This document shows, piece by piece, positions 38,445 through 38,856 of a DNA stretch of 64,000 nucleotides. Within the stretch, counting starts at the first letter, position 1. Every line of letters starts with the position of its first letter. The notes under the pieces were generated by a model that did no database searches, was not told where the DNA came from, and saw nothing but the letters and a program-made list of their open reading frames with translations. This stretch comes from Escherichia coli. GTDB lineage: Bacteria; Pseudomonadota; Gammaproteobacteria; Enterobacterales; Enterobacteriaceae. Both the position numbers and the translations under genes were made by a program. Location: the NCBI RefSeq assembly GCF_016903815.1, contig NZ_CP069973.1; one strand, written 5' to 3'.

Positions 38445-38657
38445 ATGTCTAATAAAATGACTGGTTTAGTAAAATGGTTTAACGCAGATAAAGGTTTTGG
38501 CTTTATCACTCCTGATGATGGCAGCAAAGACGTTTTCGTCCATTTCACCGCCATTCAGAGCAATGAATTCCGCACGCTGAACGAAAATCAGAAAGTTGAA
38601 TTTTCTATTGAGCAGGGGCAACGTGGTCCCGCGGCAGCGAACGTTGTTACGCTCTAA
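38445..38657 (+). CDS. cspG: Cold-shock protein CspG
   Basis: [38 protein letters not shown]…. Confidence 0.95.
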
Positions 38658-38856
38658 GGTTGCCGTTATTACTCAACATCTCCATTTCCGCTGTCCATGT
38701 TGTCATGGTTCACAGTACCGCACATCGGCATTCGATGTGACGGAGCGAAATCCTTTAGGAGCAAAGTGTATTTTTTGTAAATCGACGATGATCACCTTTG
38801 ATAACGTCGCGCTGCAAATACGCACTGACCATGCGCCGCTGGATTTCACAAAATAA
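38596..38856 (+). CDS. Possible small zinc-ribbon protein (CPCC…CxxC), possibly ymcF; start uncertain
   Basis: ORF with CPCCHGSQY…CIFCKS cysteine pairs; the only ATG in frame lies inside the cspG 3' end. Confidence 0.3.

Follow-up and report, generated by a model that had tools for sequence, protein, structure and literature searches.

Identity, start codon and genomic setting of ymcF, a small gene behind cspG in Escherichia coli

What does the small reading frame directly behind the cold shock gene cspG of Escherichia coli encode, and where does its translation begin? The question arises from the window, the 64,000-nucleotide stretch of E. coli DNA analysed here and to which positions refer unless another genome is named. 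A first-pass annotation of this DNA described an ORF overlapping the 3' end of cspG, saw in it two cysteine pairs typical of a zinc ribbon, and left three options: a start overlapping cspG, a non-canonical start, or no translation at all. The ORF is indeed there, listed mechanically at 86 aa from a TTG at 38596, and so are the two CxxC pairs, C9/C12 at 38692-38703 and C34/C37 at 38767-38778 (numbered by the 62-residue protein). The features of the locus are these:

38289..38711, plus strand: match to the cspA-type mRNA thermoregulator (Rfam RF01766), 161 bits against a gathering score of 78, E = 9.5e-44, over the full model (1-428)
38445..38657, plus strand: cspG, cold shock protein CspG, 70 aa (ORF list and RefSeq annotation of the 100% identical E. 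coli 7/2)
38596..38856, plus strand: mechanical ORF, 86 aa from TTG 38596 (program-made ORF list)
38655-38657, plus strand: cspG stop codon TAA (sequence)
38656..38660, plus strand: Shine-Dalgarno (SD)-like AAGGT, within TAAGGT, with the final AA of the cspG stop TAA as its first two bases and with an AGG ending 8 nt ahead of the ATT (sequence)
38668..38670, plus strand: ymcF initiation codon ATT (RefSeq CDS boundaries and ortholog comparison)
38668..38856, plus strand: ymcF coding sequence, 62 aa plus stop, 189 nt (PF23641 match, annotation, dN/dS, invariant residues)
38692-94, 38701-03, 38767-69 and 38776-78, plus strand: codons of the four cysteines C9, C12, C34 and C37 of ymcF (sequence)
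38831..39061, plus strand: annotated ymcE, given for context and separate from ymcF
38861..38885, plus strand: intrinsic-terminator-like hairpin AGGCTCCCTTGTGGAGCCT (38861-38879) followed by TTTTTT, 5 nt past the ymcF stop

The first 72 nt of the mechanical ORF consist of out-of-frame cspG 3' sequence and spacer and lie outside the ymcF gene; the ATT follows the cspG stop at a distance of 10 nt, and the two coding sequences do not overlap. The Rfam match spans the cspG 5'UTR and coding sequence and reaches about 54 nt beyond the cspG stop into ymcF. At the other end, ymcE overlaps the last 26 nt of ymcF in a different frame and contains the terminator-like hairpin. Upstream of the locus, appA (36619..37959, plus strand) abuts cspH (37947..38159, minus strand), their ends overlapping by 13 nt. 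K-12 has gfcA and IS1D immediately upstream of cspH; the gfc genes and IS1D are missing between appA and cspH in this strain, as they are in E. coli 7/2.

The small zinc-ribbon ORF following cspG is ymcF, b4723 in K-12 and 'cold shock small protein YmcF' in RefSeq. A 501-nt query (38400-38900) matches 5,398 of 5,426 complete E. coli genomes at no less than 80% of its length, and the same interval is 100% identical to several E. coli strains in which it is annotated as cspG, ymcF and ymcE; the RefSeq ymcF coding sequence of E. coli 7/2 maps onto 38668..38856. In K-12 MG1655 the gene occupies 1051684..1051872 and its first codon is likewise ATT. The gene order cspG, ymcF, ymcE, gnsA, yccM is that of the K-12 ymcF neighbourhood, and K-12 ymcF shares its place in the succession cspG - 10 nt - ymcF - ymcE - gnsA as well as its length of 62 aa. 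The annotated YmcF protein, with M at position 1, is 98% identical to that of the window, and the K-12 spacer reads GCC ATT ATT where the window has GCC GTT ATT; nothing else of substance differs. At the family level, the protein matches the Pfam family PF23641 'YmcF-like' with 168.5 bits against a cut-off of 27 (E = 3.5e-50), residues 1-62 aligning to positions 1-62 of the 62-position profile. A search of the NCBIfam profiles gave no family above its cut-off; the ECs_2282 family putative zinc-binding protein (NF047912), at 17.4 bits against a cut-off of 37, was rejected as at most a distant resemblance between CxxC knuckles.

The gene, its ATT start and its family are already contained in the K-12 and RefSeq annotation and in Pfam, and no new gene is described here. 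ymcF is believed to have been introduced by Zhang et al. in Mol Cell in 2018. Transcriptome studies report its co-regulation with cspG (PMC10920338; PMC11728337), and a full-text literature search on ymcF and b4723 returned transcriptome mentions only. VanOrsdel et al. (2018) deal with other csp-adjacent small proteins, YnfR and YnfQ, and not with YmcF, while the preprint of Weaver et al. (2019) mentions neither ymcF nor cspG.

Annotation of a frame is one matter and its translation another. A protein search retrieved 137 homologs, all from Enterobacteriaceae or their phages, mostly of 62 aa with some annotated at 70-72 aa, and many of them named 'cold shock small protein YmcF'. For comparison at the DNA level we assembled 80 orthologous loci from species-representative Enterobacteriaceae genomes; dN/dS was computed on 70 distinct 62-codon orthologs. 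Conservation across the family and synonymous rates had both been named in the first-pass annotation as ways of deciding the matter, and both checks came out on the side of a coding sequence: the ORF is conserved across Enterobacteriaceae under strong purifying selection, with a median dN/dS among the 70 orthologs of 0.078 over codons 2-47 and of 0.135 over codons 2-62, the C-terminal 15 codons being much less constrained. Read in the annotated frame, the alignment gives a pN/pS of 0.27, and read in the two alternative frames it gives 1.20 and 1.42; column entropy over codons 2-47 amounts to 0.43 for first, 0.23 for second and 1.21 for third codon positions. Because of these three measures we take ymcF to be translated in this frame, and they indicate that it is a genuine protein-coding gene under strong purifying selection. 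The option that the ORF is not translated is contradicted by the core dN/dS of about 0.08 and by the codon-position periodicity of the variation.

An untranslated ORF would require that its conservation reflect an RNA function, whether as a 3'UTR element of cspG or as a 3'-end sRNA resembling STnc220. RNA models do extend into the gene, with the cspA mRNA model reaching 54 nt beyond the cspG stop and STnc220 corresponding to the terminator together with the final ~40 nt of ymcF (34.6 bits here, which is sub-threshold). However, variation falls mostly at third codon positions and the low dN/dS is found in the ymcF frame only; moreover, synonymous sites have reached saturation, yet the four cysteines and some 20 further residues change little or not at all from genus to genus, a pattern that an RNA element does not give. 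A 3'-end-derived sRNA is also compatible with a coding ORF. We consider a purely RNA-based explanation extremely improbable, and read ymcF as a protein-coding gene in what follows.

What can be said of the protein? Among 42 diverse family members, C9, P10, C12, Q16, R18, S20, F36, C37, K38 and M41 are invariant, and C34 is nearly so, being conserved in at least 90% of sequences. C11 and H13, by comparison, are variable in distant members (CPSCGG, CPCCQG, CPHCQG). The metal site of YmcF is predicted from this pattern to be a Cys4 site made of C9, C12, C34 and C37, and it is not predicted to be Rieske- or UvrA-like because C11 and H13 vary. A Rieske [2Fe-2S] box II (CPCHGS) and the CPxCHG finger of UvrA were considered and rejected: the matches are to short motifs only (E = 0.01-0.3), box I is absent and C11 and H13 are variable. 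The underlying hits came from residues 9-17, CPCCHGSQY (38692..38718), which gave weak matches to cytochrome b6-f Rieske subunits and to UvrA that we judge to be chance or convergent.

An AlphaFold2 (AF2) model built on the 42-sequence alignment reaches a pLDDT of about 90 over residues ~11-40 and shows three short strands, its tail being of low confidence; a model from a 30-sequence alignment, with a pLDDT of 52.8, was discarded. Against the PDB, Foldseek placed zinc ribbons at the top (the TFIIB N-terminus, TFIIE-alpha, NrdR, Rpb12 and ribosomal zinc-ribbon proteins), all with E > 1. The classical Cys4 ribbons among these (the N-terminal ribbon of TFIIB, TFIIE-alpha, the NrdR N-terminus and Rpb12) likewise have two CxxC knuckles some 21 residues apart and short beta-strands. 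YmcF differs from them in being a stand-alone protein of 62 aa, in reaching no significant sequence or structure score against them (E > 1), and in its conserved SQYRTS and a second, 12-residue motif, both of which are absent from the classical families. Searches of PDB sequences gave no relative of YmcF with a solved structure and searches of PHROGs no significant relative; the family is narrow, since clustering of 1.84 billion proteins at 50% identity gives it 42 clusters. The zinc-ribbon assignment of the first-pass annotation holds in so far as four invariant or near-invariant cysteines are present and the AF2 model fits, and falls short in that the fold matches are statistically non-significant. 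From alignment and model, the core (residues ~7-43) appears to be a Cys4 zinc-ribbon-like knuckle pair, followed by a variable tail that is probably disordered. By analogy with what is common for small zinc ribbons, one could guess, with low confidence, that YmcF binds nucleic acid or a protein partner in cold adaptation.

If the frame is coding, the position of its first codon becomes the critical question. Between the cspG stop and the first cysteine pair the codons read AAG GTT GCC GTT ATT ACT CAA CAT CTC CAT TTC CGC, so that the stretch is, as had been noticed, free of in-frame ATG, GTG and TTG. The further statement that the only ATG of this frame lies inside cspG needs qualification: an ATG at 38563 is in frame, but it cannot serve the ORF because an in-frame TGA at 38578-80 intervenes. 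The canonical starts that are open to the ORF are TTG 38596, TTG 38608, GTG 38623 and TTG 38644 only, and all four are within cspG. Initiation at one of them would give a protein of 70-86 aa overlapping the cspG 3' end. These codons are in frame, the frame is open back to 38581 in the window, and the 70-72 aa annotation of some entries from other species would agree with such a start.

The orthologous loci speak against it. At the position of the E. coli ATT, 44 loci have an aligned ATT or ATC and 33 an ATG, and the identity of this codon is associated with the presence of a cold shock gene directly upstream:

csp gene ending 9-10 nt upstream, 40 loci: position 1 is ATT in 37, ATC in 3, ATG in 0
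no intact adjacent csp, 41 loci: position 1 is ATG in 33, ATT in 4, ACG in 3, TAC in 1

These counts are of species and not of independent evolutionary events, so that a few lineages could generate the association. Escherichia, Citrobacter, Salmonella, Kosakonia, Trabulsiella, Yokenella, Siccibacter, Pluralibacter and Intestinirhabdus make up the csp-adjacent group, in which an AGG, made by the csp stop (TAA or TGA) plus GG, stands 7-8 nt before the start in all 40 loci; 39 of them have a gap of 9-10 nt, and one (L030) was scored at 29 nt. The ATG group that has no adjacent csp includes Klebsiella, Raoultella, Enterobacter, Leclercia, Lelliottia and Silvania and has an AGGAG-type SD of its own; in the first five of these genera the ATG aligns exactly with the ATT. 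Where position 1 is ACG, an ATG is found three codons upstream, and in the single TAC locus an ATG is the next codon. In addition, 16 of the ATT loci have no ATG, GTG or TTG anywhere from the upstream in-frame stop to the ATT, among them four Kosakonia loci (L027, L031, L047 and L052, reading TAA GGA TTT AGA/ACC ATT) and two of Citrobacter (L008 and L018).

Set against an internal start in cspG, these data weigh in several ways. Sixteen ATT species have no canonical codon with which to begin before the upstream stop, and the orthologs with an ATG have it exactly at position 1, behind their own SD. The upstream extension is not conserved as protein; database ORFs that are extended upstream have I at position 1, and their extensions are mutually unrelated. 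By eye, the TTG and GTG codons inside cspG lack a preceding SD, and both RefSeq and the K-12 curators choose the ATT. An initiation codon inside cspG is very unlikely on this evidence, and the comparison indicates that a cspG-overlapping start is excluded as a general solution. Because of the ATG alignment, the 16 loci in which no alternative exists, the csp-linked ATT/ATC and the unrelated upstream extensions, we place the N-terminus of ymcF at codon 38668, ATT in the window. Of the options first put forward, it is thus the non-canonical start that RefSeq and the orthologs support, while the overlap with cspG, including that in the original title, gives way to a coding sequence that begins 10 nt past the cspG stop and has many orthologs devoid of an upstream canonical start.

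Independent initiation could be dispensed with if YmcF were made as a C-terminal extension of CspG through recoding at the cspG stop, by frameshift or by readthrough. The gap of just 9-10 nt would favour this, as would the Kosakonia loci, where csp and ymcF share one frame and are split by a single TAA, and Citrobacter sedlakii NBRC 105722 (L012), where a deletion outright fuses both frames. However, the frames of ymcF and csp differ in Escherichia, Citrobacter and Salmonella and agree in Kosakonia, and no single mechanism fits both situations; many genera have a ymcF with an ATG and its own SD and with no csp upstream; and the AGG that every one of the 40 csp-adjacent loci has kept 7-8 nt ahead of the start points to initiation. 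We regard recoding as highly improbable and retain initiation at the ATT. In the C. sedlakii locus (~1297..1686) the 3' end of csp is deleted, the frame runs into ymcF and codon 1 of ymcF is ATG; the potential Csp-YmcF fusion ORF may be genuine, or it may result from an assembly or frameshift error.

Loci that depart from the general pattern also deserve attention. In Pseudescherichia vulneris and relatives (L046, L073 and L079, ~1480..1503) the ATT is kept with no csp detected upstream, and it is preceded by AAAAAGGA and a further ATT. An Atlantibacter locus (L064) has the ATT after an apparent csp 3' end, and tblastn found no full csp gene there. Given these four loci, the ATT is not strictly dependent on coupling. 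In two Raoultella loci (L036 and L039, 1386..1484) what is left of a decayed csp gene, interrupted by in-frame stops ('AVQHGDFCTILENHR*VF..RV*PLVPAVVNVVT') lies directly upstream of an ATG-started ymcF, which fits a replacement of ATT by ATG following loss of the upstream csp.

How, then, might ymcF be expressed? With a gap of 10 nt, no promoter or terminator fits between cspG and ymcF. Given this short gap, a cspA-type 5'UTR upstream and a terminator-like hairpin after ymcF, the simplest reading is that one bicistronic cold-shock mRNA carries both genes and probably ends at the hairpin at 38861-38885. Ribosomes would initiate ymcF at the AUU by means of the SD-like UAAGG that overlaps the cspG stop. 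The locus has the geometry of a coupled pair, with the upstream stop within a few nucleotides of the ymcF SD and start and with the SD overlapping the stop codon, and initiation would most likely be coupled to termination on cspG, either through reinitiation or through local unfolding and a high local ribosome concentration. A weak AUU start may in addition hold YmcF output low and proportional to CspG synthesis. An RNA structure that hides the SD and start was also considered; the local fold partly pairs the SD and is not significantly stable against shuffled sequences (z = -1.4), and the idea was set aside. As judged from this arrangement, cspG and ymcF most likely form a single bicistronic unit of the cold shock response, whose inferred mode of expression is translational coupling. 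Cold induction of the protein would fit the thermoregulator match upstream, the RefSeq product name and the reported co-regulation of ymcF with cspG. Taken together, the best overall explanation, and one that we hold to be very likely, is that ymcF is a real gene with an ATT start at 38668, probably bicistronic with cspG and translationally coupled to it.

Two observations concern the 3' end of this proposed transcript. The Rfam sRNA STnc220, from Salmonella, covers the last ~40 nt of ymcF and the terminator; two Salmonella loci (L014, 1647..1726, and L023, 1647..1725) give a score of 102 bits, and 38814..38894 of the window gives 34.6 bits, short of the gathering score of 60. By position it looks like a fragment from the 3' end of the csp-ymcF mRNA. 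The N-terminal part of ymcE, '...RLPCGAFFIS', is the translated terminator-like hairpin behind ymcF. Since ymcE holds this hairpin, its translation from the cspG-ymcF transcript is doubtful.

AUU starts are used elsewhere in E. coli, by infC, which encodes initiation factor IF3, and by pcnB, and IF3 discriminates against starts of this type. As in ymcF, the AUU of these genes has an upstream SD and the weak start is retained instead of being 'repaired' to AUG. There is nevertheless a difference: the AUU of infC senses IF3 in an autoregulatory loop, whereas ymcF is not known to be regulated in this way and its AUU/AUC co-occurs with a csp stop 9-10 nt upstream, a combination that suggests coupling rather than infC-like autoregulation. 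IF3 also increases relative to ribosomes during cold shock. A further step would be to view the AUU/AUC of ymcF as a selected regulatory device and not an accident, with synthesis of YmcF depending either on terminating CspG ribosomes (70S reinitiation tolerating a near-cognate start) or on the cold-shock level of IF3. This we put forward tentatively, giving it somewhat less than even credence.

The csp-ymcF arrangement is not confined to chromosomes. The lambdoid phages Tritos, mEp460, 2H10 and HannyBb carry a YmcF-like gene with 66-70% identity. In Escherichia phage Tritos (L083, 1278..2337) a cspI-like gene is followed by a 10-nt gap (TGAGGTAGACAAT), an ATT and the ymcF-like gene, and then by ynfR-like, ynfN and gnsB. 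The lambdoid module is thus built like cspG-ymcF, with a csp stop (TGA) plus GG, the same gap, ATT, a YmcF-like protein of 62 aa, a terminator hairpin and a gns gene. The phage copies are phage-borne paralogs, and the ORFs that follow them are ynfR and ynfN in place of the chromosomal ymcE. The Tritos YnfR homolog, of 21 aa ('MKAPSGAFLLG...', ~1692-1740), lies over the terminator hairpin after the ymcF-like gene, as ymcE does on the chromosome. The parallel order of the phage module and of cspG, ymcF, ymcE, gnsA suggests a shared origin of the chromosomal locus and the prophage cold-shock cassettes.

The ORF first noticed behind cspG was rightly picked out: for want of a canonical start, this gene escapes standard ORF finders. 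To our knowledge, the correlation of the ymcF start codon with csp synteny has not been described; the comparison of start codons provides independent, sequence-only support for the ATT start and a coupling hypothesis that can be tested. The biochemical function of YmcF remains of interest, given its conservation and its link with cold shock. Should the start codon indeed be a selected device, then dependence on terminating CspG ribosomes or on IF3 would in either case fix a low ratio of YmcF to CspG.
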